The translations under genes were made by a program, and so were the position numbers. The notes below the pieces were generated by a model. That model had not been told where the DNA came from. It searched no databases and saw nothing but the letters and a program-made list of their open reading frames with translations. Below, one piece after another: positions 1,736 to 18,777 of a DNA stretch of 20,145 nt. Source of the stretch: Peptococcaceae bacterium (lineage in GTDB: Bacteria > Bacillota > Dehalobacteriia > UBA7702); assembly GCA_019415505.1 (NCBI GenBank), contig DXZC01000024.1, positions 1 to 20,145 of the forward strand. The letters are read 5' to 3'. How positions within the stretch are numbered: the stretch's first letter is position 1; every line of letters starts with the position of its first letter.

Positions 1736-2698
1736 ATGAAAGAAACTAAAATTTCCTTAGGCGACGATGCTACCGCCGCTGTGGTTTTGGGTCAACGAGA
1801 TGTTAATTTAAATCTGTTGGAACAAAAATTACCAGCCAGTATTATGGTCAGAGGCAATGAGGTGCATATTAACGGCGATTCTGGCCAACAGGCCCAGGCC
1901 CGCCATGTTTTTGAGCACTTAAAAACCTTAGCCGGCGCCCAGGTAGAAATAAATGAAAACGTGATAAATTACGCCATAGCCAGCGCCTCTGAAGGCGGCG
2001 GCCAGGTGGCGCGAACCCTAACTGGCAATGTTTACACCACCCCCCGGGGCAAGCAGATAAAACCGCGGACTATGGGGCAAAAAAAATATGTGGACGCCCT
2101 TAACCGCAACGATATAGTTTTTGCCATTGGCCCTGCCGGTACCGGCAAAACATACTTGGCTGTAGTTATGGCGGTGCTGGCCTTGAAGAAAAAAGAGGTG
2201 CGGCGGATAGTGCTTACCCGTCCCGCTGTGGAGGCCGGGGAAAAGCTGGGTTTTTTACCCGGCGATCTACAGGACAAGGTGGACCCTTATTTGCGCCCCC
2301 TCTACGATGGACTTTATGATATAATGGGGAGCGACGCTGCAGCTAAATTAATGGATAAAGGCATTATTGAGGTAGCGCCTCTCGCCTATATGCGGGGACG
2401 TACCCTTGACGACGCCTTCATCATCTTGGACGAGGCTCAGAATACTACGCCCCAGCAAATGAAGATGTTTCTCACCCGTATAGGTTTTGGTTCCAAGGCG
2501 GTAATTACCGGGGATATAACTCAAATTGATTTGTCTCCGGGGGAAAAATCCGGTTTGGTTCACGCTCAAAAGGTGTTGCATGAGGTACAAGGTATAGAAT
2601 TCTCCTATTTAAGTCATCTTGATGTGGTGCGCCATCCTTTGGTGCAAAAAATCATCAACGCTTACGAGCGGGAGGAAGTAAATGAAAAGACGCAGTAA
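1736..2698 (+). CDS. phoH: PhoH-family ATPase
   Basis: 320 aa with Walker A GPAGTGKT, Walker B-like FIILDEAQN and the ITGDITQIDL motif, all typical of PhoH. Conserved position before the 7TM-HD gene and ybeY. Confidence 0.9.
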   Translation: MKETKISLGDDATAAVVLGQRDVNLNLLEQKLPASIMVRGNEVHINGDSGQQAQARHVFEHLKTLAGAQVEINENVINYAIASASEGGGQVARTLTGNVYTTPRGKQIKPRTMGQKKYVDALNRNDIVFAIGPAGTGKTYLAVVMAVLALKKKEVRRIVLTRPAVEAGEKLGFLPGDLQDKVDPYLRPLYDGLYDIMGSDAAAKLMDKGIIEVAPLAYMRGRTLDDAFIILDEAQNTTPQQMKMFLTRIGFGSKAVITGDITQIDLSPGEKSGLVHAQKVLHEVQGIEFSYLSHLDVVRHPLVQKIINAYEREEVNEKTQ

Positions 2699-5111
2699 TT
2701 CCCTGTTGTCCCGAAGTAAGGTTATATCAAAAAAGGACGCGGCTAGGCTAAAAAAGGATTATGTCTGGCTATGGTGGCTGGCCATGGTGGTATTTACCGC
2801 CTTTATTCTTATGGTACCCGCTTTTGGCAGCGGCGACAGCTATGAAGTAGGGGAAATATGTGATAATACCATCTATTATGAAGGCAACACTATTTCCTAT
2901 ATGAGCGAAGTTAAATACCAACAGGCCAAAGAAGCGGTAGAAGAACAAGTAAGCCGAGTTTATGTCCTGGATGAAAACAAGCTGCCGGAAGCTAAGAATA
3001 AGATCTCCGCTGCCGCTAATGGTATAATTGACATAAAAAACAATGAATCCGAGGATCATACCGAATTATACAAAAGCTTTTTAGGGGATAACTATAGCCA
3101 AGAGCTGGCGGATGATTTGGAGAACCTGGATGTTTCCCGCCTTAGTGAACTGGCTTTGGCGGCTAATTCTTTCCTGGACAAGTATTACGCCACCGGCGTT
3201 AAAGAAAGCGATATGACCGTGTTCCTCGATGAGATAAACAGTTTGATTGAGGAAGGGGAATACAGTGAAGCTGAAAGGGCGGTTCTGCATTATTTTATTA
3301 ATGTCGCCCAGCTCACGCCTAATAATATTTATGATAGTAAAGCCACAGAGGCTATTATTGCCGCTCGGCAAGGCGAGCTGAACCCCATAGAAGTAACGGT
3401 GCGGCCCGGTCAAATTGTGGTGCAAAGGGGTACGGCAATTACCGAGGAACAAGTTGAAATGCTGGACAAGACCGGTCTTTTGACTGTAAGTAAGAGTAAG
3501 CTCTATTATCCTGGTATAGTCATACTCACTGTTATGCTGTATTTCCTAATGTACATTTATACCCGCCGTTTTTTCCCTGATTATGCCTATGATAAGCAGG
3601 GTGTACGGCTGTTGGCGACCTTTATGGTGTTCTTCCTTCTGGTTTGCCAGGGCATTATGATGTTTACCTCCAGTATGACAGGTCTGCTATACAGCGTATT
3701 GGGTTATCTCTTACCCTTGCCGGCTTTGGCCATACTTTTTGCTACCCTAACTAACCAGCGGTTTTCCTATTTTATTGTAGTTGTAACCTCTATATTTGTC
3801 TTTATACTCAGCTTAAATCAGCCCGCTTATGGCGTGGTAGCTTTGGTCAGCTCCCTTTACACTGTCCATATTGTGGGACGAATACGCGAACGCTACCAGC
3901 TCATTACCTTTGGTTTTTATATAGGGCTTTTTAATGTTATCAGCATTGTCGGCCTGGGTTTTGTCGGCGGACAAAATACAACCACTTTGATTGTGGGCGC
4001 GGTGGTAGGTATGCTATCCGGCTTTTTCTCCTCTTTACTGGCTTTAGGGGTGTTGCCTTTAGCGGAAACATTCTTTAAGGCTACCACTCCCATGAAGCTG
4101 TTGGAGTTGGCTAATCCCGGCCACCCTTTAATAAAACGGTTAATGACCGAAGCGCCGGGCACATACTACCACAGTGTGCTGGTTGGTAATTTGGCGGAGG
4201 TTGCCGCCGACGCCATAGGGGCTGATTCTAACCTGGTGCGGGTGGCTTCTTATTTCCATGATGTGGGTAAGCTGGAGCGGCCTAAATACTTTGTGGAGAA
4301 TCAGGAGCCAAACATGAATCCCCATGAAAAGCTCAACCCTTCCTTGAGTACGTTAATCATTATTTCCCACGTTAAAGACGGTGTGGAGATGGCGGAGGAT
4401 TACGCCCTCCCCCAAAGTGTGATCAATATTATTAATGAGCATCATGGCAACAGTGTGGTACAATACTTCTACCATAAGGCTAAGGCCAACGCCCACGGTG
4501 AGGACGTTAATATTGACGATTTTCGCTATCCTAATCCCAAGCCCCAATCTAAGGAAAGCGCTGTCGTTATGATGGCCGATAGCGTACAGGCAGCCTTGCA
4601 AAGCGTGACGCTGCACTCTAAGGGAGAGATGAAGGCAAAAATTCACGACATAATCCAGGGCCAGCTGGCGGCAGGACAGTTTGAAGAATGCGACCTAACC
4701 TTTAGGGACTTACATAAGGTCCAGGAAGCCTTTTACTCAGTGCTGAGCGGTCTTTCCCACTACCGCATTGAGTATCCCAGTATGTCTGATTTAGATAAAA
4801 AACAACTGGTTAAGGAATTGGCGGCGAAAAAGAAAATTGCCCCCGATGAAGTGGAGGCTTTGGTTAAGGAAACCCCGGCAACCGACTGGATTAGCCCCGA
4901 GGTGGGTATTGCTGTGGAAATGGACGCCCCCAAGGGCGAAAAGGCGTTTACCGGTATCAGTATAGATGCTATTAGTAAAGCTAATTCTTTAATAGATAAA
5001 AATTTCAGCGAAATAGTTAAGGAGCAACAGGAGATTACTTCGGAAATAAAAGAGGACGCTATTAAAGAGACTAGGGAGACTGGCGAAAATGAAGATAGAG
5101 ATACGCAGTAA
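2682..5111 (+). CDS. pgpH: 7TM receptor with intracellular HD hydrolase domain (YqfF/PgpH-type cyclic-di-AMP phosphodiesterase family)
   Basis: 809 aa with an N-terminal signal/TM segment, an extracytoplasmic domain, and multiple hydrophobic helices at about aa 285-470. The HD domain reads [34 protein letters not shown]...INEHHG. The 5' end overlaps the phoH stop. It carries about 90-100 aa of extra acidic C-terminal tail. Confidence 0.85.
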
Positions 5112-7064: not shown

Positions 7065-7967
7065 ATGGAAAAATTCCGTTCGGGCTTTGTGACAATAATT
7101 GGCCGGCCTAACGCCGGTAAAAGTACCTTGATGAACACCGTATTGGGGCAGAAAATTGCCATTGTATCAAATAAGCCCCAGACCACGCAAAATAAAATAC
7201 GGGGATTTTATACCTCCGATAGCGCTCAGATTATTTTTATCGATACCCCCGGTATTCACAAGCCCAAGCATAAGCTGGGAGAATTTATGGTGGAATCGGC
7301 TAAAAGCGCTCTAGGCGGAGTGGACGTAATATTTTATATAGTGGACGCTGGGGAGAAATTTGGCGGCGGCGAGGAGTACATCATAAAAACCCTGCCCAGT
7401 GACGCGCCGGTTTTTTTGCTGCTCAATAAAATAGATCTTTTGACTCAGGCTGAGCTTTTTCAGTTGGTGGATTTTTATAAGGATAAATTTGACTTTGCTG
7501 AAATAGTCCCCATTTCCGCCCTTAAAAGTACCAATGTGGAGCGGCTTTTGGACACGGTTATAAAATACTTGCCAGAGGGTCCCTGCTATTATCCTGACGA
7601 TATGGTGACGGATCAGCCGGAACGGGCAATAATGGCGGAAATTATTCGGGAAAAGGTTTTAGAACTCACTGAGGACGAGGTGCCCCACGCTGTGGCTGTA
7701 GAAATGCAGGAAGTAAAAGAGCGGCCAGGGGGTAAGGTATATGCCAATGCTACCATTTATGTGGAGCGGGAATCGCAAAAGGGCATTATTATTGGCAAAA
7801 ACGGCGTTAAATTAAAGGAAATAGGCCGTCGCGCCCGGCTGGAGATGGAAAGGGCCTTGGGCTCCTCCTTTTATTTGGAGCTTTGGGTTAAAGTGAAAAA
7901 AGATTGGCGCAATAAAGAAATTTATTTGCGGAATTTTGGTTTTGATAAACGGCAAATAGAGGATTAA
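7065..7967 (+). CDS. era: GTPase Era
   Basis: 300 aa with G1 GRPNAGKST, G3 DTPG and G4 NKID, and a C-terminal KH domain (ESQKGIIIGKNG). Confidence 0.95.
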   Translation: MEKFRSGFVTIIGRPNAGKSTLMNTVLGQKIAIVSNKPQTTQNKIRGFYTSDSAQIIFIDTPGIHKPKHKLGEFMVESAKSALGGVDVIFYIVDAGEKFGGGEEYIIKTLPSDAPVFLLLNKIDLLTQAELFQLVDFYKDKFDFAEIVPISALKSTNVERLLDTVIKYLPEGPCYYPDDMVTDQPERAIMAEIIREKVLELTEDEVPHAVAVEMQEVKERPGGKVYANATIYVERESQKGIIIGKNGVKLKEIGRRARLEMERALGSSFYLELWVKVKKDWRNKEIYLRNFGFDKRQIED

Positions 7968-8005
7968 AGCTGTTAACTGAATGTTTGAGTAAGGAAGGTG
8001 AGATA

Positions 8006-8092: not shown

Positions 8093-9463
8093 ATGAATTT
8101 AAAAGAAAAAATGGAACGCCTGGAACCCTTTATTTTAACTAGGGATTATCCGGGCATTGCCGCAGTTTTGGCGCCCTCGGCGCCAATTGACATCGCCGCT
8201 GTTCTGGGTGAGCTGGATGAGGATTTTATCTCTTCGGTTTTACAGTATCTCCCCTCGGACATTACTGGCGAGGTTTTGAGTCATTTAGAACCGGAATTGG
8301 TGCCCCAAATTATGCGGGATTTAGGCGATGAAAAAAGCGCCGCCATTCTGGAAACCATGTTTTCCGACGACGTAGCCGACATTCTTGGTGAGTTAAGCGT
8401 CCATGAGCAGAACGAAGTCTTTGAATTGATGGAAGACGAGGATGTGGAGGACGTTAAGGGCCTGTTGGTATATCCTGAGGATACTGCTGGCTCCATTATG
8501 ACCACGGAGTTTGTGGCCCTGAATAAAAATGTTTCCACCGAAGAGGCTATAAATATTTTGCGGGAGAAATCTCCCTCCGCGGAAACTGTGTATTATGTGT
8601 ATGTAATAGATGATGATGATGTTTTAGTGGGTGTTCTTTCCCTGCGTGATTTGATTGTAACGCCGCCAAACTGGACGGTGGAGCACATAATGCATACTAG
8701 GGTAAAATATGTTACTGATTACATGGACCAGGAGGAAGTGGCTAATTTAGTATCTCGCTATGATATTATGGCCGTACCGGTTGTGGATAAAGAACACCGT
8801 TTAGTGGGGATTATTACCGTGGATGACGTGTTAGACGTTATTCAAGAAGAGGCTACCGAGGACGTTCTGCGTATGGCTGGCGTTCATGAAGATGAATTAG
8901 ACGAGGATGAATCCTTTGGCGAAAAAGTAATTACTTCCGTGAAGTCACGTCTGCCCTGGCTGGTTCTCACCTTATTTGGCGGTATACTTTCCGGTATTAT
9001 AATTGGTAATTTAGAGAGTGAGTTACAAGCTGTGGTAGCCCTATCTTACTTCATACCGCTTTTATGCGGCATGGGGGGGAGCACGGGGACCCAAAGCTCC
9101 ACTGTTACAGTGCGCGGTATTTCCACCGGCCAGTTAGACGCCTCGGAGTTTTTCACCAATATTTTTCGGGAATCCTGCGTGGGCTTTATTGTGGGCGGGT
9201 TCTGCGCCCTGGTATTAGCGTCGATAACTTATGTTTGGCAGGGCAGCGTTATTCTCGGTTTGTTAGTTGGCCTTACCTTGATATGTAATATGGTGTTGGC
9301 GGCGGCTATTGGCACTTTGGTACCCTTGGCTCTGAAAAAGTTTGGCGCTGACCCAGCTGTGGCCTCAGCACCCTTTATCAGCACCAGTATAGATGTTATT
9401 GGCCTGATAATTTATTCGATATTGGCATACCTCTTTATGCCCTTACTTTTGGGGATAGCATAA
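8093..9463 (+). CDS. mgtE: Magnesium transporter MgtE
   Basis: 456 aa with an acidic N-domain, tandem CBS domains (...VYVIDDDDVLVGVLSLRDL... and ...VPVVDKEHRLVGIITVDDV...), and a C-terminal 5-TM MgtE domain (GMGGSTGTQSS...PFISTSIDVIGL). Confidence 0.93.
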   Translation: MNLKEKMERLEPFILTRDYPGIAAVLAPSAPIDIAAVLGELDEDFISSVLQYLPSDITGEVLSHLEPELVPQIMRDLGDEKSAAILETMFSDDVADILGELSVHEQNEVFELMEDEDVEDVKGLLVYPEDTAGSIMTTEFVALNKNVSTEEAINILREKSPSAETVYYVYVIDDDDVLVGVLSLRDLIVTPPNWTVEHIMHTRVKYVTDYMDQEEVANLVSRYDIMAVPVVDKEHRLVGIITVDDVLDVIQEEATEDVLRMAGVHEDELDEDESFGEKVITSVKSRLPWLVLTLFGGILSGIIIGNLESELQAVVALSYFIPLLCGMGGSTGTQSSTVTVRGISTGQLDASEFFTNIFRESCVGFIVGGFCALVLASITYVWQGSVILGLLVGLTLICNMVLAAAIGTLVPLALKKFGADPAVASAPFISTSIDVIGLIIYSILAYLFMPLLLGIA

Positions 9464-10179
9464 TGAAATATTACCCGGTTGAAGCCCTGATAATTAAGGC
9501 TCTGGATTATGGTGAGAGCCATAGAATATTTACTTTATTCAGTAAAGAGCAGGGTAAATTTGCCGCCATAGCACGGGGCGTGAAAAAGCCAAAAAGCGCC
9601 TTAAAGGGGCATTTACAGTTAGGTAACCGCTGTGATTTTCTTTTATATCATGGCCGCGGTCTGGACACTATATCCCAGGCGGTGGCTAAAGATTCCTATC
9701 CCCATATCAGAGAAAATCCCAGGTCTTACCTTTACGCCTCATATTTTATGGAACTGCTCAATATATCCTTACCGGAAAGAGAAGCTGAGGCGGAAATTTT
9801 TTCCCTGGCTTGCCAGGTTTTCCAGGCTTTGGCTTATATTTCCCCGCCTACCTTAGCCCGATATTTTGAGTTAAGGCTCTTGGCGGCTCTCGGTTATGAT
9901 AGCGATTTTAAGCATTGCGCTGCCTGTGGCGGTGAACTAAAGGAGGGTTTCCTTTCGCCGCGTTTTCCCGGTGTAATTTGTGAAAAATGCGGCAGCGGCT
10001 ACCCTGTTTCCCCTCAAGCCTTATATGCCCTGAACTACTATCGGGGTAACGATTTAGAGACCTTGGAGCGTCTTAAAATTAGTTCGGAGACAGCGCGTCA
10101 GGCGTCTAACGCCACCAAGCACCTGCTTACCTACAACTTGGAGAAAAAGATTAAATCCCGTGATATCCTAGGGGAATAA
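9463..10179 (+). CDS. recO: DNA repair protein RecO
   Basis: 238 aa with an N-terminal OB-fold region (EALIIKALDYGESHRIFTLFSKEQGK) and a Cys4 zinc motif (CAACGG...CEKCG). The ATG overlaps the mgtE stop. era-recO linkage is conserved in Firmicutes. Confidence 0.9.
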   Translation: MKYYPVEALIIKALDYGESHRIFTLFSKEQGKFAAIARGVKKPKSALKGHLQLGNRCDFLLYHGRGLDTISQAVAKDSYPHIRENPRSYLYASYFMELLNISLPEREAEAEIFSLACQVFQALAYISPPTLARYFELRLLAALGYDSDFKHCAACGGELKEGFLSPRFPGVICEKCGSGYPVSPQALYALNYYRGNDLETLERLKISSETARQASNATKHLLTYNLEKKIKSRDILGE

Positions 10180-10325: not shown

Positions 10326-10401
10326 GTAGCTGTGCTACCTATAAATTTTCCTACTGTCTAGTTGTAGCTGCGCTGTTTATAAATTAATCCACTATCTAGA
10401 T
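10326..10401. repeat. Two tandem imperfect 38-bp repeat units in a non-coding gap
   Basis: Unit A (10326-10363) is gtagctgtgctacctataaattttcctactgtctagtt. Unit B (10364-10401) is gtagctgcgctgtttataaattaatccactatctagat. They match at 28/38 positions by hand alignment. Unit A starts inside a perfect hairpin GGTAGC-TGT-GCTACC (10325-10339). Confidence 0.6.
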
Positions 10402-10575
10402 ACCTTTAATTGCTAGAAAGGATTACTGGTGGGATTTATTTATACTTTTAGCAACGGCATTTTTTAATAGTTACTGCGGCGGAGATGGGGTATTTGATAG
10501 TTTCCGGCCCTGCTAAAGGAAAAACTACCGTAGCTTTAACTGCTGACATTTAGCGTTATATAATAATTTATCGTA

Positions 10576-10620
10576 GAAGAAAAAGCCGCCGCACCGTATA
10601 ATACGGCGCAGCGGCTTTTC
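10576..10620 (-). terminator. Rho-independent terminator of the mttB-permease operon (bidirectional architecture)
   Basis: A GC-rich hairpin GCCGCCGCACCG / CGGCGCAGCGGC (10585-10615, 2 mismatches) lies 25 nt after the permease stop. On the minus-strand transcript it is followed by TTTTTCTTCT. A4 and T4 flank it on the plus strand. Confidence 0.7.
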
Positions 10621-10639
10621 AGCGGTTACCTGGGGGTGG

Positions 10640-11593
10640 TTAGAGGCTTTTGGCAGCTTGCTGGGTCGGTTGATTATCCTCCCTTGTTTTCTGTTCTTTG
10701 CGTTCAATTAGCTGTAGCCAAGCTAAGGCGGCAATTACCACACCCATACCCAGTATTTGTATGAGGGACAAGGGCTGTCCTAGGACAAAATATCCCAGTA
10801 TAGCGGCAACTATAGGGTCTAAACTGTACATAATCACTACCAAAGGTGCTTCCAGGTTGGCAAAGGCTCTTAGGAGGAAGAAGTAGCTGCCTACCATGGG
10901 AATGAGACCTAAGCCCAATAGGGCTATAATAGATACTGCGCCATGATGTGACACGCTAACCGCTATTTCCGCAGCAATACCCCAGGGCGGCATTAAAAAG
11001 GAGAGGGCGACAATGGCAACTAGATTGGTCCAAAAGAGATAAGCGTCATAATCGTAACCTTCGCCTACGGCGTAATTGCAGAGGCTGTAACCTACGGCAA
11101 AGGCCACAATCACCGTTATCATCCACAGTAAGCCGGGAATGGTGATAGATAGGGTAGTCCAGACCTGTAGAATCAAAACTATACCGAATATGGCTACAAT
11201 ACCGGAGATTATTTTGGCCGGGGTTATCTTATTTTTCCAGACCACACGGGCTATAACCACAACTAAAAAGTAATTCAAAAAAGTTAGCACTGAAGCCACA
11301 GCTACCGGCGTGCCGGCGGTTATACCCTTGGCGTAGCACCAGTTAGAGCCAATAACCCCCACTAAACCAACTGCCAGATAAATTATGATACCTTTTTTAT
11401 TTAGCTTCAGTCCCGATGGATTCTTGACCAGGGCGCAAATGAGAAAGAACAATACCATTACAGCCGGGCCGCAAATGGCGATAGTGGTTTCCGAATAACC
11501 CATATTGCTGAGTATTGCCACAAAGGTACCGTAGGTTCCCCAGCAGATCCCAGCTAAGGCGGCGTAAATGATTCCCATTACAGATTTGCTCAT
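10640..11593 (-). CDS. DMT-superfamily permease (EamA-like, about 10 TM)
   Basis: 317 aa, almost entirely hydrophobic helices in two EamA-like halves with a hydrophilic C-tail. SD GGAAAGAAGG lies 7 nt before the ATG. It sits 58 nt downstream of mttB with no intervening terminator, so it is likely co-transcribed. Confidence 0.85.
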   Translation of the reverse strand: MSKSVMGIIYAALAGICWGTYGTFVAILSNMGYSETTIAICGPAVMVLFFLICALVKNPSGLKLNKKGIIIYLAVGLVGVIGSNWCYAKGITAGTPVAVASVLTFLNYFLVVVIARVVWKNKITPAKIISGIVAIFGIVLILQVWTTLSITIPGLLWMITVIVAFAVGYSLCNYAVGEGYDYDAYLFWTNLVAIVALSFLMPPWGIAAEIAVSVSHHGAVSIIALLGLGLIPMVGSYFFLLRAFANLEAPLVVIMYSLDPIVAAILGYFVLGQPLSLIQILGMGVVIAALAWLQLIERKEQKTREDNQPTQQAAKSL

Positions 11594-11651
11594 AATATAA
11601 CCTTCTTTCCTTGAGGTTAATTCTTCTGTTTAATTCATTAATTCAGCCTTT

Positions 11652-13115
11652 TTAGGTTAATGCAGCATCCGCGGCCTTTACGATGTTCGCAATTTCGGTC
11701 AACTGTTCATCTGACAGTATTTTGGGATAATGTGTTTCCAAAATACGGCGGGCTTCTGCGTTAGCGGCCTGAGACAGATCCATGGCGCCGTTCTGGAGCC
11801 ATTCCTCCCTGGTACATCTGTTCATGATACGAGGGCAGGACTGCAAGTTCCTGAAGTTTTCAAAGGTGTGTTGGGCGCCCAGGTATTCGCCTTTAATGCC
11901 CACTTCCTTAATGAGGTCAACCGCCAAGGTTTCGTCATTGACGGGAATACCCCCTAATACTGTTTGCATCATGCGTATAAAATCCGCATCGGCAACTATT
12001 TGCCCTAAATCCATGGTTAAGCCGCTTTCCAGCATGCCCGGGCCGTATATCATGTTGGCTCCTGCCAACATGGGGAGCATAGCTGTAATGCTTTTTTCGT
12101 AACCTGCTTGCAGGTCTGGCGCCTTACTGTCTGTCTAGGTACCGGCTACTAGGGTGGGTAACTTATACAGCCGGGCAATGGCGGCAATGCCGGCGCTGAT
12201 TAGACCCAACTCCGGACAACCCACCATGGCGGCGGCGTTGTGCCTCATATCCAAAGTGCCGGTGGAGCTGCCGTAGATAAAAGGCGCACCCTTGCGGACA
12301 ATTTGGGACAGGGTTAAGGCCGCTAATATTTCGGCGTTAGCTACCACCAAGCAACCTGCCAGGGTAACTGGGGCCATACCACCGGACATAGCCATGGTTA
12401 GAATCATCGCCGGAATATTGTATTTTGCCGCTGTTATGGTGGCGGCTACAGTGCTGTCGGGAATTGACAGGGGGCTAATGGTACAGCCGCCCAACATCAT
12501 AAGGGGCCGTTCCTGCAAGTTATGGTAGCCGCCGGCGGCCGCGGCCCCCATTTGCATGAGAGCCTCCGCTGTTTGTTTATTTTCCGGACTGGCTAAGGCC
12601 GGCTTTTGTGAATTGGTTAAATGGGCTTCAAACCCATGTAAACAGGCTGTTGCCTCTGGGACGTCACGAGCCACCATGGTATCAAAGAGAAAGTCGTATT
12701 CAGCTAGATAATCCACCAGGCGGGAGCAGTCGGCAATATCCTGTTTCGTGGTTTCTCGCAGTTTGCCGGTTTTAAGGTCATGGATAAATATGCCTAAACC
12801 AAAGGGACAGACATAAACCCGGCCATCCTCCAGAATTATGTCGTATTCGGGGCTTTTACCCGCTAAAAATACGCTGGCAGGGGCTGAAGCAATGGCGCTC
12901 TCTACTAAATGGGCGGGAATCTTTACAGTATCCTTTGCCACATAAGCCCCTGCTTCAGCAAAGTAGTTTAAGGCTTCTTTGTCGTTGACTTGCACACCGG
13001 TATAGCGTAACACCTCCAGAGTTGCCAGATGAATATGCTGTAAATCATCCTGGGAAAATAATTGCAACGCCGCACCGGTAAAATTGTTGTAACCGGCATT
13101 TTTTCTCCTAAGCAT
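11652..13115 (-). CDS. mttB: MttB-family trimethylamine:corrinoid methyltransferase with an in-frame UAG (predicted pyrrolysine at codon 327 of 487)
   Basis: ORFs 12135..13115 and 11652..12080 are in the same frame. They are separated by only TAG plus 18 sense codons (TDSKAPDLQAGYEKSITA). The context ...LPTLVAGT-[UAG]-TDSKAPDLQAGYEK...LAGANMIYGPGMLE... matches my recollection of the Methanosarcina MttB pyrrolysine region (...VAGS-O-SDAK...QAGHEK...LAGAN.IYG.GMLE). Total length and UAG position agree with archaeal MttB, which I recall as about 495 aa with Pyl near residue 334. Strong SD AAGGAGGG lies 5 nt before the ATG at 13115. Confidence 0.85.
12135..12137 (-). other. In-frame amber codon (candidate pyrrolysine codon)
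   Basis: Plus-strand cta is minus-strand TAG. It is the only stop in the 1464-nt reading frame before the terminal TAA at 11652-11654. Confidence 0.8.
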
Positions 13116-13170
13116 AATAACCCTCCTTAACTTTTAGTTAATGTAAAATTGTGTCTTTTCCCTTTATTAA

Positions 13171-13186
13171 AGCAAATACCATGCCA
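13171..13186 (-). promoter_or_regulatory. Sigma-54 (-24/-12) promoter of mttB
   Basis: The minus strand reads TGGCATGGTATTTGCT, against the consensus TGGCACG-N4-TTGCW. There is one mismatch and exact GG-to-GC spacing. It lies about 55-70 nt upstream of the mttB ATG and faces a divergent sigma-54 activator gene. Confidence 0.75.
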
Positions 13187-13250
13187 CAGGATTCGACGGA
13201 AAAAATGCCTGTACAGAGTTGTTGCACTACTTTGACGGCCTATTTTTGAC

Positions 13251-13342
13251 AAATTATATTTTACAGACTTGGGGGAAAGTTACCAAAAGACCACCAAGCT
13301 TTGTAAAAATAAAATTTAATTATTGTTAAATTATATTTTACA
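13251..13342. promoter_or_regulatory. Candidate enhancer (UAS) repeats for the sigma-54 activator
   Basis: A perfect 15-bp direct repeat AAATTATATTTTACA occurs at 13251-13265 and 13328-13342. An inverted related element TGTAAAAATAAAATTT lies at 13302-13317. These sit about 65-155 bp upstream of the -24 element, the usual enhancer distance. Confidence 0.45.
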
Positions 13343-13451
13343 AATAACATTTTTCTTAACATAGAGCAAAAAATCTATATTATTATAATTTCATCTTTAC
13401 AAGCAACCGGATAAATTATAATATTAAAGTTGAGAGAGGTGGAAAAAATCT

Positions 13452-14900
13452 ATGAAAAAAGAAGATATGTTATTGCAGCTTAAGGAGTTAAAAAAAGAAA
13501 ACAAGGTTTTACGTTTTGCCTTGGATAATATCCATGAGGGTGTGTTAATTACAGATGAGAAGGATGTTATCGTTGTTTACAATAAGGAGGTGGAAAAAAC
13601 CGAAGGAATAGCCAGAGAAAAAATGTTGGGCCGAGTGGAAAAAGAAGCTTATGGCAATATTTATAATTATAATTTTGACCAGCTTTTTACCAAGGCGGTA
13701 CGGAAGTCCGGCGAGGCGATTATTGGCGCTTACCATGAATATGATTTAGGGCGAGGCAACAAAACTGCCATTTTATTTGATGTAAAGCCCGTGGTAGACA
13801 AGGATAAGGTGATTGCGGTATGCACCATTGGCCGCAATATTAACCAAATAAAGGAATTTATTGTCGATACCTTGGAAACCCAGCAGAAATTTAACCGCCA
13901 GCTTGGTAAGGAAATATCGGGGGCCAAATATTTCTTTGAGGATATCATTGGCGAGAGCGCAACAATGAAGCGTTTAATTGCCCAAGCTAAAAAGGTGGCC
14001 TTGCGGGACTCGCCCATTTTAATTTATGGGGAAACCGGAACCGGCAAAGAATTGCTGGGCAGCAGCATACATAATCATAGCTTATATTGCGACGGTCCCT
14101 TTGTCACATTAAATTGCGCCGCCATTCCCGAAGCCTTGCTGGAGAGTATTTTATTCGGGGTGGCCAAGGGCTCTTATACCGGGGCGGTAGAAGGGGCGGG
14201 GTTATTCGAGCAAGCCAATAACGGCACTTTATTTTTAGATGAAATAAACTCTATGCCCCTTAATTTACAGGCTAAGTTACTTCGGGCCGTGCAAGAAAAA
14301 CGAGTGCGGCGGCTGGGCGGCAGCAAGGAGATACCGGTGAATTGTCGCATAATTAGCGCCTGCAACCAAAGCCCCCAGGAGATGCTACATTCCAATGTAA
14401 TACGGGAGGATTTATTCTTCCGTTTAGCCACCGTAGAATTGACTATTCCACCCCTGCGAGAGCATAAAGAGGATTTGGAATACTTAATTGGTTACTTTTT
14501 ACAAAAGTGTAATATCCGTTTTGGCCTCTTTGTGGAGGATATTTCCCAGAATTTGAAGGAGTTATTGCATCAATATGATTGGCCCGGCAATGTACGGGAA
14601 TTAGAAAATTTTATTGAAAGTTCTATGAACCTGGTAGAAGCCAGGGAGCGAGTTCTCGCTTTGCGGCATCTTTCCGATTATTTCCGCGATAAGTTCAACA
14701 GTATGGAGGCTAATTCAAATTGCCATCATAATTTGGGCCAAGAAATCAAAGATAAAATGAGGGCGTACGAAAGAAATCTCTATAAAGGTTTATTAATTAA
14801 ATATAATTACGGTATTGCTAATTTGGCTAAGGACTTAGGTATGACTCGGCAGAATGTTTACATTCGTTTGAAAAAGCTGGGTATTCAGTTACCACAATGA
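13452..14900 (+). CDS. Sigma-54-dependent transcriptional activator (PAS sensor, AAA+ domain, C-terminal Fis-type HTH)
   Basis: 482 aa with an N-terminal PAS-like region (LDNIHEGVLITDEKDVIVVYNKEVEKTEGI). It has Walker A GETGTGKE, Walker B LFLDEI, a GAFTGA-loop variant GSYTGA, and ...RLGGSKEIPVNCRIISA...REDLFFRL... The C-terminal HTH reads IANLAKDLGMTRQNVYIRLKKLG. Confidence 0.9.
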   Translation: MKKEDMLLQLKELKKENKVLRFALDNIHEGVLITDEKDVIVVYNKEVEKTEGIAREKMLGRVEKEAYGNIYNYNFDQLFTKAVRKSGEAIIGAYHEYDLGRGNKTAILFDVKPVVDKDKVIAVCTIGRNINQIKEFIVDTLETQQKFNRQLGKEISGAKYFFEDIIGESATMKRLIAQAKKVALRDSPILIYGETGTGKELLGSSIHNHSLYCDGPFVTLNCAAIPEALLESILFGVAKGSYTGAVEGAGLFEQANNGTLFLDEINSMPLNLQAKLLRAVQEKRVRRLGGSKEIPVNCRIISACNQSPQEMLHSNVIREDLFFRLATVELTIPPLREHKEDLEYLIGYFLQKCNIRFGLFVEDISQNLKELLHQYDWPGNVRELENFIESSMNLVEARERVLALRHLSDYFRDKFNSMEANSNCHHNLGQEIKDKMRAYERNLYKGLLIKYNYGIANLAKDLGMTRQNVYIRLKKLGIQLPQ

Positions 14901-14927
14901 AGACAGTAAGAACGCTAAGTAGAAGAT

Positions 14928-14966
14928 AAAGGTTCAGAGGAAACAACCTCTGAACCTTTATTTTAA
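14928..14966 (+). terminator. Rho-independent terminator after the sigma-54 activator gene
   Basis: A perfect 13-bp stem AAAGGTTCAGAGG / CCTCTGAACCTTT with loop AAACAA, followed by ATTTTAATTT. Confidence 0.8.
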
Positions 14967-15099
14967 TTTGTTAAGTGGCTGGTGGCAGCAGTATAGCTTG
15001 GCCTCTAGGATGTGGCGTTTAGCTCTGTTTGCCGCCGATTTTTCCCGACCAGAACGAAAAACCAACCACAGCGGCCCAGGTGGGTTTTGGCGGACATAT

Positions 15100-15166
15100 T
15101 GTCGAAAGATTCTTCCATGTTTACTTGCCGTTCTCGACAATTATCTTGGCTGCCAGGAACTATAAT
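15100..15166 (+). promoter_or_regulatory. spoIIG-type promoter with Spo0A boxes and an over-long spacer
   Basis: A perfect 0A box TGTCGAA lies at 15100-15106. An inverted near-box (minus strand TGTCGAG, 15133-15139) overlaps a -35-like TCGACA (15134-15139). After a 21-nt spacer comes TATAAT (15161-15166), about 90 nt upstream of spoIIGA. Confidence 0.6.
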
Positions 15167-15258
15167 ATGTACATGGATTGATGTTACCTCAACCTGAGTT
15201 ACTTATATTTATATGGCCGGGGTCAGGTGGAGGGCTAGAAAAAAGGGGTTGAAGCGCC

Positions 15259-16146
15259 ATGACGTCTTATGTAGTATACGGTGATTTACTGTTTTTAATG
15301 AATTTACTCATGGATTTTACACTCCTCTATGGCGTGGCCCGTTTTGGCAATTTCCCAACCAGGTTATTGCGGCTATTTTTGGCCTCCTTGTTAGCGGCCT
15401 TTTATGGGGTGGCGGCAGTTTATCCCCAGTACGCGGTATTAAACGGTATATTTTGTAAGACCTTAGCTTCCCTTGCCATTGTAAAATTGGCTTTTTGGTC
15501 CTGCCAGGGTAAAAAGTATCTCCGGGCAGTGGCTTATTTTTATCTTTTAAGCTTCCTAATGGCCGGGGCTGTAATGGGGGTAACTTGGTTCTTTAATGAA
15601 AAGGGCTGGTCCGGCCAAGTTATGTCCTTCACCGCTATGGCTTTGGCTTTCGCCGTGCTCTTGGCCTTAATGCTATCTCGCTGGGGCATGGCTTATGTAA
15701 AGGGTAACCTCCGGCGCAATGAGGGCAGTGAGGAAATAGAAATTTGTTTAGGCGGTAAGTCCGTGCGGGTTAGCGCCTTATTGGATACAGGTAATGAGCT
15801 GTTGGACCCTGTAACTAGGTGTCCAGTGGCTGTAGTGGAGTTTGAGGCTCTTAAACCCTTGCTGCCCCTGGACTTTGCCGATTCTTTCCGGGGCCAGACC
15901 GATGTTGGCGGTATTCTCAGCAAGTTTATAGATACGCCCCTTGGTAAGCGAATGCGCCTTATTCCCTTTTCCAGCATTGGTAAACGCAACGGTATGCTGT
16001 TAGGGGTTAGGCCCGACTGTATTAGGTTACCGCAAAGAAAAGGCGCTGTAGTGGAAAATGCCGTGGTTTGTTTGTACAAAGGCTCCCTCCATACCAGAGA
16101 GTCCTGCCGCTGTATTGTTAATCCCGCTATTTTGGATTCCCTATAA
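15259..16146 (+). CDS. spoIIGA: Sigma-E processing peptidase SpoIIGA
   Basis: 295 aa with an N-terminal multi-TM region and a C-terminal aspartic protease motif LLDTGNEL. It sits immediately upstream of pro-sigma-E. Confidence 0.9.
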   Translation: MTSYVVYGDLLFLMNLLMDFTLLYGVARFGNFPTRLLRLFLASLLAAFYGVAAVYPQYAVLNGIFCKTLASLAIVKLAFWSCQGKKYLRAVAYFYLLSFLMAGAVMGVTWFFNEKGWSGQVMSFTAMALAFAVLLALMLSRWGMAYVKGNLRRNEGSEEIEICLGGKSVRVSALLDTGNELLDPVTRCPVAVVEFEALKPLLPLDFADSFRGQTDVGGILSKFIDTPLGKRMRLIPFSSIGKRNGMLLGVRPDCIRLPQRKGAVVENAVVCLYKGSLHTRESCRCIVNPAILDSL

Positions 16147-16167
16147 AGATAAACAGGAGGAAAAACC

Positions 16168-16890
16168 ATGGAAGTGAAAAGTCTGCGCAATTTTATGGTA
16201 CTTTTTTTACCGGTGCTTTTACAGCCGCCGGAGGAGAAGTCCGTATTTTATGTGGGGGGGAGCGACGTCCTACCGCCGCCGTTAGAATCCGAGGAGGAAA
16301 GAAAGATGCTTTTGCGGCTTGGCGAGGGCGACGGTGAGGCTCGGGATATTTTAATAGAGCATAATTTGCGCCTTGTGGTTTACATTGCCCGGCGTTTTGA
16401 AAATACCGGTATTAATATTGAGGATTTAGTCTCCATTGGCACTATTGGCCTGATTAAGGCGGTAAATACCTTTGATATTTCTAAAAAAATTAAATTAGCT
16501 ACATACGCTTCCCGCTGTATTGAAAATGAGATTCTCATGTATTTGCGGCGCAATGGTAAAACCAAAGGGGAAATATCGTTAGATGAGCCCTTAAACGTGG
16601 ACTGGGACGGCAATGAACTGCTGCTTTCAGATATTATGGGCACAGATAGCGACCTTTGTTCACGGGAATTAGAAAGCGAGGTGGATAAGGCTTTACTGCG
16701 TATGGCTATGGAAAAACTCAGCCCCCGGGAAAAGGTAATAGTAGAGCTGCGTTATGGTATTGACGCCGAAGGGGAGGAAAAAACCCAAAAGGAGGTGGCA
16801 GAGGTTTTAGGTATATCCCAATCTTATATTTCCCGTTTGGAAAAACGCATTATCAAGCGCTTACGCAAGGAGATAATGAAAACAATCTAA
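16168..16890 (+). CDS. sigE: RNA polymerase sporulation sigma factor SigE (pro-sigma-E)
   Basis: 240 aa. The pro-sequence is followed by [12 protein letters not shown], then [62 protein letters not shown] and [21 protein letters not shown]. These are nearly identical to B. subtilis SigE blocks as I recall them. SD AGGAGG. Confidence 0.95.
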
Positions 16891-17982: not shown

Positions 17983-18777
17983 TTAGTAATCTCCTTTCTG
18001 TTCTTGCCCTGATTCCTGTTCTTGTCCGGCTGCGGTTAGATGGTTGTGAGGTATTGTGCCGGTATAAGCTGGCACAATTATTTCTTCCTGGGGAATTGCG
18101 GTAAATAAAACTTGGGAATCTAGGAGGTCGCTATAAATTGAGCTGTTTTTTAGGGCTGTCATAAGTTCATTTTTATCCCCGGCTACCATTATTTGGTAGG
18201 GTGGAGCCAGGCGGGTTTGGTCAATCATGATTACCGTACCCACGCAACGAATGGCTGTAGAGGCCAAAACCCTTTGGCCGTTAATGGCAATGGCTTGGGC
18301 GTAGGGCCGTAAATCGTTGATTAAGAATAAAAGCGTTGTGTCGTGGATAATGTAAAGCTCCGGGTCGTAGTCCTCCGGCGAGGTTTCCTGGGCAATGGCC
18401 GCGGCCTCGCTATTATCGTTGAGCTCCAGTAAGAGGCCAGGCGAGATAATTTCTGTATAACCTGCCTGTGCCTTAAGGTTTTTGTTGGCGTCCTCCAGCT
18501 CTTTAATGATTTGTGCGTCAAAATTTTGGGCTAAGGAATAGCTCTCCCTTTGGTTAAGCAGAGAGGAGACGCTGGCGGACAAACGGCTGTTTTCTTCGTC
18601 CAGCTCTTCTATTTGGTCTATTAAATTTTCCTGCACTGTATTATTACCGGAGTCGGCAGCGAAATGGGAGCGCAGCGTGGCAACGCCAAAAAAACCAAGG
18701 GTCAGCAATATTAAAAAAATCGCTACCCCGGCCCACAGCCGCTTAAAATTATGCCGTCGCTTTTTTCCTGGGGGCAA
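17983..18777 (-). CDS. DUF881-domain protein (YlxW/YlxX family)
   Basis: 264 aa with a TTG start, an N-terminal TM anchor, a coiled coil, and a C-terminal block INDLRPYAQAIAINGQRV typical of DUF881. Confidence 0.8.
   Translation of the reverse strand: MPPGKKRRHNFKRLWAGVAIFLILLTLGFFGVATLRSHFAADSGNNTVQENLIDQIEELDEENSRLSASVSSLLNQRESYSLAQNFDAQIIKELEDANKNLKAQAGYTEIISPGLLLELNDNSEAAAIAQETSPEDYDPELYIIHDTTLLFLINDLRPYAQAIAINGQRVLASTAIRCVGTVIMIDQTRLAPPYQIMVAGDKNELMTALKNSSIYSDLLDSQVLFTAIPQEEIIVPAYTGTIPHNHLTAAGQEQESGQEQKGDY

Follow-up and report, generated by a model that had tools for sequence, protein, structure and literature searches.

A predicted sigma-54-type promoter and a divergent PAS activator at a conserved, UAG-containing mttB cassette of a Peptococcaceae bacterium

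What decides when a gene with an in-frame UAG codon is transcribed? The question is raised by a 20,145-nt stretch of DNA from a Peptococcaceae bacterium (contig DXZC01000024.1 of assembly GCA_019415505.1; hereafter the window), in which mttB, a gene for a pyrrolysine (Pyl)-type trimethylamine:corrinoid methyltransferase, is separated by an intergenic region of 336 nt from a divergently transcribed gene for an enhancer-binding protein (EBP). A first-pass annotation had placed a near-consensus sigma-54 site, with exact spacing and one mismatch, on the minus strand at 13186-13171, about 55–70 nt upstream of the mttB ATG, and had described the product of the divergent gene as an activator with PAS, AAA+ and helix-turn-helix (HTH) domains. 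Reading of the strand and a consensus scan both confirm the site; measured from the ATG at 13115-13113, its near end lies 56 nt and its far end 71 nt upstream. As far as sequence comparison can tell, the sigma-54-type promoter ahead of mttB is genuine and conserved, and it is paired with the PAS activator encoded divergently. We consider it probable that the region controls a catabolic cassette of two genes, mttB(UAG)–eamA, whose promoter would be silent until the divergent PAS–AAA+–HTH activator fires.

The promoter element, TGGCATGGTATTTGCT, carries its GG dinucleotide at 13185-13184 and its GC dinucleotide at 13173-13172, which is the canonical sigma-54 spacing. Its one departure from TGGCACG-N4-TTGCW is a T for C at position 6. 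This 'mismatch' is the base that Clostridia prefer, since the consensus with which Nie et al. searched 57 Clostridiales genomes is TTGGCATNNNNNTTGCT (Nie et al., 2019; PMC6615313), and the window core, TGGCAT-N5-TTGCT, has no mismatches to the Clostridial core. No other sequence in the window, on either strand, comes within one mismatch of the consensus. By chance, 0.14 such sites would be expected per window, and 13 of 100 shuffled sequences gave at least one, which leaves some room for a rival explanation: the −24/−12 match could be fortuitous, with mttB transcribed from sigma-70 promoters within the AT-rich spacer and the EBP acting on some other target. Several sigma-70-like hexamer pairs can indeed be found on the mttB strand of the spacer (13359-13330, 13286-13258 and 13141-13114). 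Against this, scoring with a position weight matrix (PWM), a check suggested in the first-pass annotation, set the site well apart. On a matrix derived from 29 comparator sites of other genomes and excluding the window site, the latter scored 21.5 bits (comparator median 21.0), whereas the runner-up among ~40,000 window positions scored 12.0, a gap of 9.5 bits. When up to two mismatches were allowed, the window held four sites against 2.7 expected, which is noise; the two-mismatch matches at 11315-11300, 12361-12346 and 18070-18085 were dismissed, being located within coding sequences and lacking TTGC or a correct GG/GC pair. From sigma-54 promoter geometry, the transcript would carry a 5' untranslated region of ~45 nt. 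An Rfam scan of positions 10400-15300 for a leader or riboswitch, with E values of up to 1, gave only the PYLIS_3 element inside mttB.

To place the element in a wider context, we used an alignment of Pyl-type MttB proteins to scan 185,579 species genomes. The 31 resulting loci were annotated with phmmer and scanned for sigma-54 sites, and further loci were reached via homologues of PylS and of the EBP (individual comparison loci are given below by L numbers). Among these we defined a set of 25 non-redundant Bacillota mttB-type operons that adjoin an EBP of the window's family. Their hosts are the window organism, Peptococcaceae UBA7702, Dehalobacterium, Candidatus Formimonas warabiya, three Sporomusa species, Thermincola ferriacetica, Zhaonella and several metagenome-assembled genomes (MAGs) of Clostridiales and Bacillota. 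A GG-N10-GC sigma-54 element was present at most ~200 nt upstream of the first gene in all 25 operons, with no more than two mismatches in 22 of them and three mismatches in the other three. None of 16 full Pyl-mttB loci that lack an EBP of this family, from Bilophila, Mailhella, Desulfovibrio, other Thermodesulfobacteriota MAGs, one Blautia MAG and one unclassified Bacillota MAG, has a sigma-54 site directly upstream.

Closer relatives give the same picture. When four orthologous intergenic regions, from loci with 75–83% identical MttB proteins, are aligned, the −24/−12 block stands out as the clearest conserved island and the sigma-70-like pairs are not kept. The nearest MttB in the species-genome scan, from Peptococcaceae UBA7702, is 75% identical. 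The arrangement of EBP, TAG-split mttB and eamA recurs on contigs with EBPs that are 62–72% identical, up to three cassettes in a row, some of the cassettes on these contigs having an unsplit, non-Pyl MttB; adjacency of EBP and mttB is kept in at least six genera. In every related cassette the element is conserved in both place and sequence, amid flanks that diverge, and the homologous promoter of Sporomusa has an experimentally mapped start (see below). Taken with the PWM gap, these observations make a fortuitous match extremely unlikely.

The PAS and AAA+ domains attributed to the divergent activator were recovered. Its PAS domain was matched by PF00989 (24.9 bits) and its AAA+ core by Sigma54_activat (PF00158; E 7e-62), with an intact Walker A motif, GETGTGKE, and an AAA_lid_14 domain. 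The L1 loop reads GSYTGA; in the closest 120 homologues GAFTGA is found 78 times, GSFTGA 26 times and GSYTGA five times. The Fis-type C-terminal sequence, IANLAKDLGMTRQNVYIRLKKLGI, aligns with homologues carrying PF02954; Pfam HTH_8 itself was not matched at E ≤ 0.001. Full-length homologues number in the hundreds, often several per contig, and many members of the family are labelled 'arginine utilization regulatory protein' by the Joint Genome Institute. The best NCBIfam match is PrdR (NF041552; 347.3 bits, residues 11-475 on profile positions 127-575), but at a cutoff of 795 bits the EBP is not a PrdR equivalog.

If the activator works at a distance from the promoter, the intergenic region offers candidate sites for it. 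This region is 28% GC, compared with 46% for the window, and contains a 24-nt direct repeat (13242-13265 and 13319-13342), each copy of which includes one TGTNAA-N7-TTNACA palindrome. These are the only two palindromes in the whole window that match at 9/10 positions or better. We refer to them as candidate upstream activating sequences, UAS1 (TGACAAATTATATTTTACA) and UAS2 (TGTTAAATTATATTTTACA). The centre of UAS1 is ~96 nt upstream of the predicted start and that of UAS2 ~173 nt upstream. Orthologous palindromes are present at L007 1748-1766, L008 6964-6982 and L010 7819-7837 and 7898-7916 (79 nt apart), so that the four orthologous intergenic regions contain six, against 0.185 expected from dinucleotide-preserving shuffles. 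This enrichment is optimistic because the motif was derived from the same sequences that were scored. The geometry seems to us the stronger argument: the centre of the proximal palindrome is 71.5 nt from the GG dinucleotide in the window, L007 and L008, and 82.5 nt from it in L010, that is, one helical turn (11 nt) more. A similar palindrome is found between divergent sigma-54 promoters in three Sporomusa loci. We infer that the palindromes are binding sites for the activator.

A second conserved feature of the spacer is a short box, TACAGGCATTTTT, 27 nt upstream of TGGCA. Sequences of the form [TA]AC[AT]GG[CT], usually followed by RTTTT, precede 12 of the 25 mttB-cassette promoters, either 27 nt upstream of TGGCA or, nearer by roughly a helical turn, 17–18 nt upstream. 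The box is found at the window offset of 27 nt in L007, L010, L023, L021 and L022, and ~10 nt closer in L007b, L024, L025 and L040. Where a gene on the same strand lies upstream, it is part of a terminator hairpin. A role as an insulating terminator was rejected for the window, since it fails there and in its three orthologues (z −0.76 to +0.43; window −0.76); it holds in L012, L016, L020, L021, L023 and L025 (z −1.7 to −5.3). In these same six loci strong terminator-like hairpins with U-runs stand directly upstream of the sigma-54 sites (at 14171-14215 in L012 and ~4770-4805 in L016), which in Sporomusa include those of the pylT promoters, though no co-directional gene needs terminating there. 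Such hairpins may insulate Pyl genes from read-through, and terminator hairpins upstream of promoters may reinforce the off-state in several genomes.

Published data sets from Sporomusa sphaeroides allow the behaviour of a related locus to be followed. In strain DSM 2875, an EBP of the family (43% identical to that of the window) is located beside mttB(Pyl)–mttC, which adjoins a divergent pylT–pylS–pylB–pylC–pylD–pylSn–mtbB cluster, and the flanking gene order matches that of the strain KIAC locus around KIAC18_001665. Strain KIAC has sigL (KIAC18_001702; PMC12456013), and its starts with a SigL motif, mapped by differential RNA sequencing (dRNA-seq), include 1680559(+), which belongs to the corrinoid/mttB unit, and 1680199(−), which belongs to that of pylS (PMC12456013, Data S2). 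The sigma-54 sites of DSM 2875 (13919-13904, minus; 14222-14237, plus) predict a start-to-start distance of 355 nt, in comparison with the 360 nt published for KIAC (PMC12456013). Reads for KIAC mttB number 16 on H2/CO2, 1,636 on methanol, 10,648 on formate and 66,790 on betaine (PMC12456013, Data S1). For the pyl genes the corresponding values are 0–2, ~150–225, ~900–1,000 and 2,400–5,000, and for the EBP gene 543, 261, 289 and 115 (PMC12456013). On our analysis of these counts, the pattern is that expected of a constitutively present, signal-gated activator acting on a tight promoter. The study is framed as one of betaine metabolism, and its main text does not mention pyrrolysine (PMC12456013).

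A model of events at the window locus can be put forward on this basis. The activator would be made constitutively from its own sigma-70-type promoter and would bind the two palindromes upstream of the predicted start. On receipt of an inducing signal by the PAS domain, it would assemble into an active ring, which in turn would open the closed sigma-54 holoenzyme complex at the −24/−12 element through DNA looping and ATP hydrolysis. The signal would most likely be trimethylamine or a close methylated amine imported by the EamA permease, and the UAG-containing mttB mRNA would therefore be produced only when the substrate is present.

The nature of the signal is the part of this model most exposed to a competing view. 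It is possible, if on balance rather unlikely, that the switch is real but that the PAS domain reports a general state (redox, energy, one-carbon or methyl-group supply, or relief from growth on H2/CO2), or that a partner protein controls the activator. In S. sphaeroides the mttCB and pyl operons are upregulated on betaine, and also ~650-fold on formate and ~100-fold on methanol relative to H2/CO2, and for the PAS domains of Clostridial EBPs, sensing of redox or energy status has been proposed in addition to sensing of ligands (PMC6615313). On the other hand, each MttB paralogue has its own EBP, and across the cassettes' EBPs the identity of the PAS domains falls to 27–48%, compared with 49–77% for the AAA+ cores, which fits paralogue-specific ligands. 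Moreover, several cassettes are found next to each other in the same genome, more than one global signal would require, and the co-transcribed permease suggests substrate-linked induction. We also considered co-evolution of sensor and enzyme as evidence for a ligand and set it aside as weak: Spearman correlations with MttB identity were 0.23 for the PAS domain, a value that suits a general-state sensor, 0.08 for the AAA+ domain and 0.48 for the DNA-binding domain.

A switch of this kind has a purpose only if its target is functional. In mttB there is one in-frame TAG, at 12137-12135 (codon 327), which aligns with Pyl334 of Methanosarcina MttB. The read-through product matches Methanosarcina barkeri MttB (7xcl) with an E value of 4e-92, VAGT-X-TDSK lying on VAGS-X-SDAK, and exceeds the NCBIfam TIGR02369 equivalog cutoff (609.9 bits against 525). 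Conceivably the UAG could be a true stop. The host would then lack pyl genes, the cassette would be a remnant, either decaying or acquired horizontally, and the switch would be useless. The window contains no pyl gene, tRNA-Pyl, other tRNA gene or mttC, and the cassette is situated like an island between recO and spoIIGA–sigE. We nevertheless regard this as very unlikely. Both halves of the mttB reading frame are intact and in frame, and the TAG is kept at the exact Pyl position in all seven relatives, orthologues and paralogues alike. In addition to the equivalog score of the full-length protein, a PYLIS_3 element of 70 bits begins at the UAG, and six independent metagenome assemblies contain the locus in identical form. 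None of 22 host genes ends in TAG, as expected if UAG is read, the stops being TAA in 19 cases and TGA in three (a small sample, comprising the window's 19 genes and L002 7604-11661). By this count the host seems to avoid UAG as a stop, and Pyl decoding would then be less costly.

As for the composition of the cassette, eamA is found downstream of mttB in most related cassettes, and the EamA permease is a candidate methylamine importer. The window cassette (10640-13115), like most related ones, is an mttB–EamA/DMT pair that contains neither mttC nor a methylcobamide methyltransferase gene; MttB must therefore borrow its corrinoid and methylcobamide partners. Comparison of the window MttB (11652-13115) with those of L007, L008, L010, L015, L017, L025 and L040 separates the Pyl-type proteins into at least three clades, which share 44–50% mutual identity and are equally far from archaeal MttB. 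Non-Pyl members have Trp at the Pyl position. Each clade is typically found in its own EBP/sigma-54 cassette, usually with eamA, and in Formimonas and Sporomusa sp. KB1 two Pyl-MttB clades occur in tandem in one operon. These relationships hint that Pyl-MttB paralogues may have different substrates.

The cassette is flanked by ybeY, dgkA, era, mgtE and recO on one side and by spoIIGA, sigE and cdaA on the other. These are housekeeping and sporulation genes, from which we take the host to be a spore former within the Bacillota. Although there are no mobility genes, the location between recO (9463-10179) and spoIIGA–sigE (15259-16890) and the low GC content of the intergenic region are consistent with an inserted mobile-like module. 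The features of the locus, together with the pylT genes discussed below, are listed in Table 1.

Table 1. Coordinates of the features of the mttB–EBP locus and of the regions with a sigma-54 site and pylT in comparison loci.
Feature	Position	Strand	Basis or remark
Sigma-54 (−24/−12) promoter, TGGCATGGTATTTGCT	13171..13186	minus	Read on strand, consensus scan and PWM
Predicted transcription start	13159..13161	minus	Sigma-54 geometry, ~11–13 nt past the −12 GC; inferred
Conserved box, TACAGGCATTTTT	13201..13213	minus	27 nt upstream of TGGCA
UAS1, proximal candidate enhancer (palindrome)	13247..13265	no strand	9/10 to TGTNAA-N7-TTNACA
UAS2, distal candidate enhancer (palindrome)	13324..13342	no strand	10/10 to TGTNAA-N7-TTNACA; 77 nt from UAS1
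Enhancer-binding protein, 482 aa	13452..14900	plus	PAS 21-124, AAA+ 165-330, AAA lid, C-terminal HTH sequence
mttB, pyrrolysine-type trimethylamine:corrinoid methyltransferase	11652..13115	minus	TIGR02369, 7xcl alignment
mttB ribosome-binding site, AGGAGG	13127-13122	minus	Sequence
PYLIS_3 (Rfam RF02510)	12038..12137	minus	Starts at UAG; 70.2 bits, gathering score 38, E 2e-13
eamA, gene for a DMT-family transporter, second in the operon	10640..11593	minus	PF00892
Terminator-like hairpin and T-run, likely operon end	10587..10608	minus	32 nt past the eamA stop
Sigma-54 site with pylT, L012	14222-14344		
Sigma-54 site with pylT, L016	4759-4639		
Sigma-54 site with pylT, L017	3140-3025		
Sigma-54 site with pylT, L044	7841-7976		
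Sigma-54 site with pylT, L047	7822-7957		
Sigma-54 site with pylT, L045	~7863-7976		

Does the promoter also control expansion of the genetic code? The first-pass annotation saw in a switch directly on mttB a route to conditional code expansion. The conserved sigma-54-type promoter with its divergent PAS activator holds up, and the same wiring is found on all 25 operons; taken alone, the promoter would not switch code expansion, since it drives mttB–eamA only and there is no pyl gene or tRNA-Pyl in the window. In related Bacillota, sigma-54 sites do precede pylT, at six of seven loci checked, pylT following at a distance of 25–50 nt from the site's end. The loci are those of S. sphaeroides, Sporomusa acidovorans, Sporomusa sp. 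KB1, Desulfosporosinus meridiei, Formimonas warabiya (L047) and, with a weaker site, T. ferriacetica; the sole exception is Zhaonella (L046), where no sigma-54 site was found before pylT. Enhancer-dependent control of a tRNA gene is unusual. Sites precede both pylT and pyl genes in Sporomusa, Desulfosporosinus, Formimonas and Thermincola. In the Formimonas and Sporomusa relatives pylTSBCD and mttC are adjacent to mttB, and in Formimonas locus L015 a single sigma-54 site is followed on one strand by a Pyl-mttB, the window orthologue (70% identical), eamA, a second pylT, pylB, pylC and mttC. As a side observation, a choline-kinase/APH-like kinase gene follows pylS in Desulfosporosinus (L044 8908-9861) and Thermincola (L045 8969-9925), and one heads a sigma-54-driven EamA/MttB operon in Zhaonella (L046 13181-14419).

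Because activators of this family and sigma-54 promoters drive pylT, pylSBCD and mttC in related Bacillota, the window cassette is best read as a satellite of a sigma-54-run methylamine/pyrrolysine regulon, and the host presumably possesses rpoN and pyl genes. A broader proposition, to which we would give roughly even chances, is that in pyrrolysine-decoding Bacillota the whole Pyl trait (pylT, pylSBCD, mttC and the UAG-containing methyltransferase genes) forms one sigma-54 regulon under a dedicated, paralogue-rich family of PAS activators, near-zero basal promoter activity keeping UAG suppression off until a methylamine signal arrives. If true, this regulon would explain how the code expansion described for Acetohalobium comes to depend on the carbon source. 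Other loci, and data in published supplements, therefore make it plausible that conditional code expansion is switched through sigma-54; the idea is largely unstated in print, and the pylT-inclusive regulon deserves follow-up. The route can only in part be called uncharacterised, as the first-pass annotation had it, in view of a survey that lists COG5598 (PMC12316311) and of the Sporomusa dRNA-seq data (PMC12456013); what does stand is that the searchable literature contained no paper explicitly linking pyrrolysine with sigma-54 or RpoN. The Formimonas proteomics supplement held nothing on genes orthologous to the cassette, and the PylS of Acetohalobium arabaticum was not among the 120 best PylS matches.

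Several points weigh against a promoter that is silent without its activator and an amine as the signal. The sigma-70-like pairs in the AT-rich spacer mean that some activator-independent transcription is possible. The L1 loop of the EBP is GSYTGA rather than GAFTGA, the protein misses HTH_8 at an E value of 0.001 that most homologues reach, and the DNA-binding domains of orthologous EBPs are only 33–53% identical. The palindrome motif was scored on the sequences from which it was derived, in a region of low GC content. The Sporomusa operon rises on formate and methanol with no trimethylamine added, and the signal may thus not be the amine itself. Finally, rpoN, pylTSBCD and mttC of the host fall outside view, the window being approximately the whole 20-kb contig, and the transcription start and expression pattern proposed for the host are predictions from sequence.

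The need for such a switch can nevertheless be appreciated. Bacteria that decode Pyl require a tight off-state of the suppressor because UAG is still used as a stop (at the Sporomusa locus, 4 of 17 genes end in TAG), and a sigma-54 promoter, being unable to fire without an activator, is a natural route to it. The window provides a clean annotated example, with an activator, two candidate enhancer sites, a promoter and a UAG-containing target, and the presence of the same switch on pylT and pyl genes in cultivable relatives makes conditional code expansion directly testable. In practical terms, the locus is a candidate amine-responsive expression module of very low leakage, and offers a rule by which split mttB genes, and the regulators that go with them, can be annotated. 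What is new here is a further sigma-54/EBP-controlled Pyl-mttB cassette; published data already show much of the wiring.

Among known systems, RocR of Bacillus subtilis responds to arginine and ornithine, and PrdR of Clostridioides difficile controls proline reductase. Like the window EBP, both combine a PAS sensor and a sigma-54 AAA+ core with a C-terminal HTH, which in the window EBP is a putative one; in both cases the activator gene adjoins a single target operon, with inverted-repeat enhancers ~100–200 nt upstream. The window EBP lacks ~126 N-terminal residues of PrdR, and its target and presumed ligand also differ. In A. arabaticum, expression of pylTSBCD is trimethylamine-dependent (Prat et al., 2012, as summarised in PMC11467909). 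As far as that summary goes, the likeness to our reading of the window is a conditional Pyl trait in a bacterium with a methylamine substrate as the trigger (PMC11467909). A survey of sigma-54 regulons with position-specific scoring matrices lists MttB (COG5598) as sigma-54-regulated in the class Clostridia (PMC12316311) and so, as in the window, associates sigma-54 promoters with MttB-family genes in this group. That survey is computational and at the level of COGs, does not extend to the activator, the enhancer, the division into Pyl and non-Pyl proteins or the pyl genes, and reads MttB as a cobalamin-biosynthesis enzyme (PMC12316311).

Sporomusa strains KIAC and DSM 2875 provide a further close comparison. 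They share with the window an EBP of the same family and predicted PAS–AAA+–HTH architecture, a Pyl-type mttB as target, a promoter of the same type (TGGYAT-N5-TTGCA in Sporomusa) and a palindrome, which in Sporomusa reads TGTAAA-N7-TTCACA and lies between the promoters. The Sporomusa starts were mapped by dRNA-seq, and induction is ~4,000-fold (PMC12456013). Its EBP gene is tail-to-tail with mttB, whereas that of the window is divergent, and its operon starts with mttC and lacks eamA, whereas the window cassette consists of mttB and eamA only. A second, divergent sigma-54 promoter in Sporomusa reads pylT–pylSBCD. The window MttB, at 47% identity to that of Sporomusa, belongs to a different Pyl-MttB clade.

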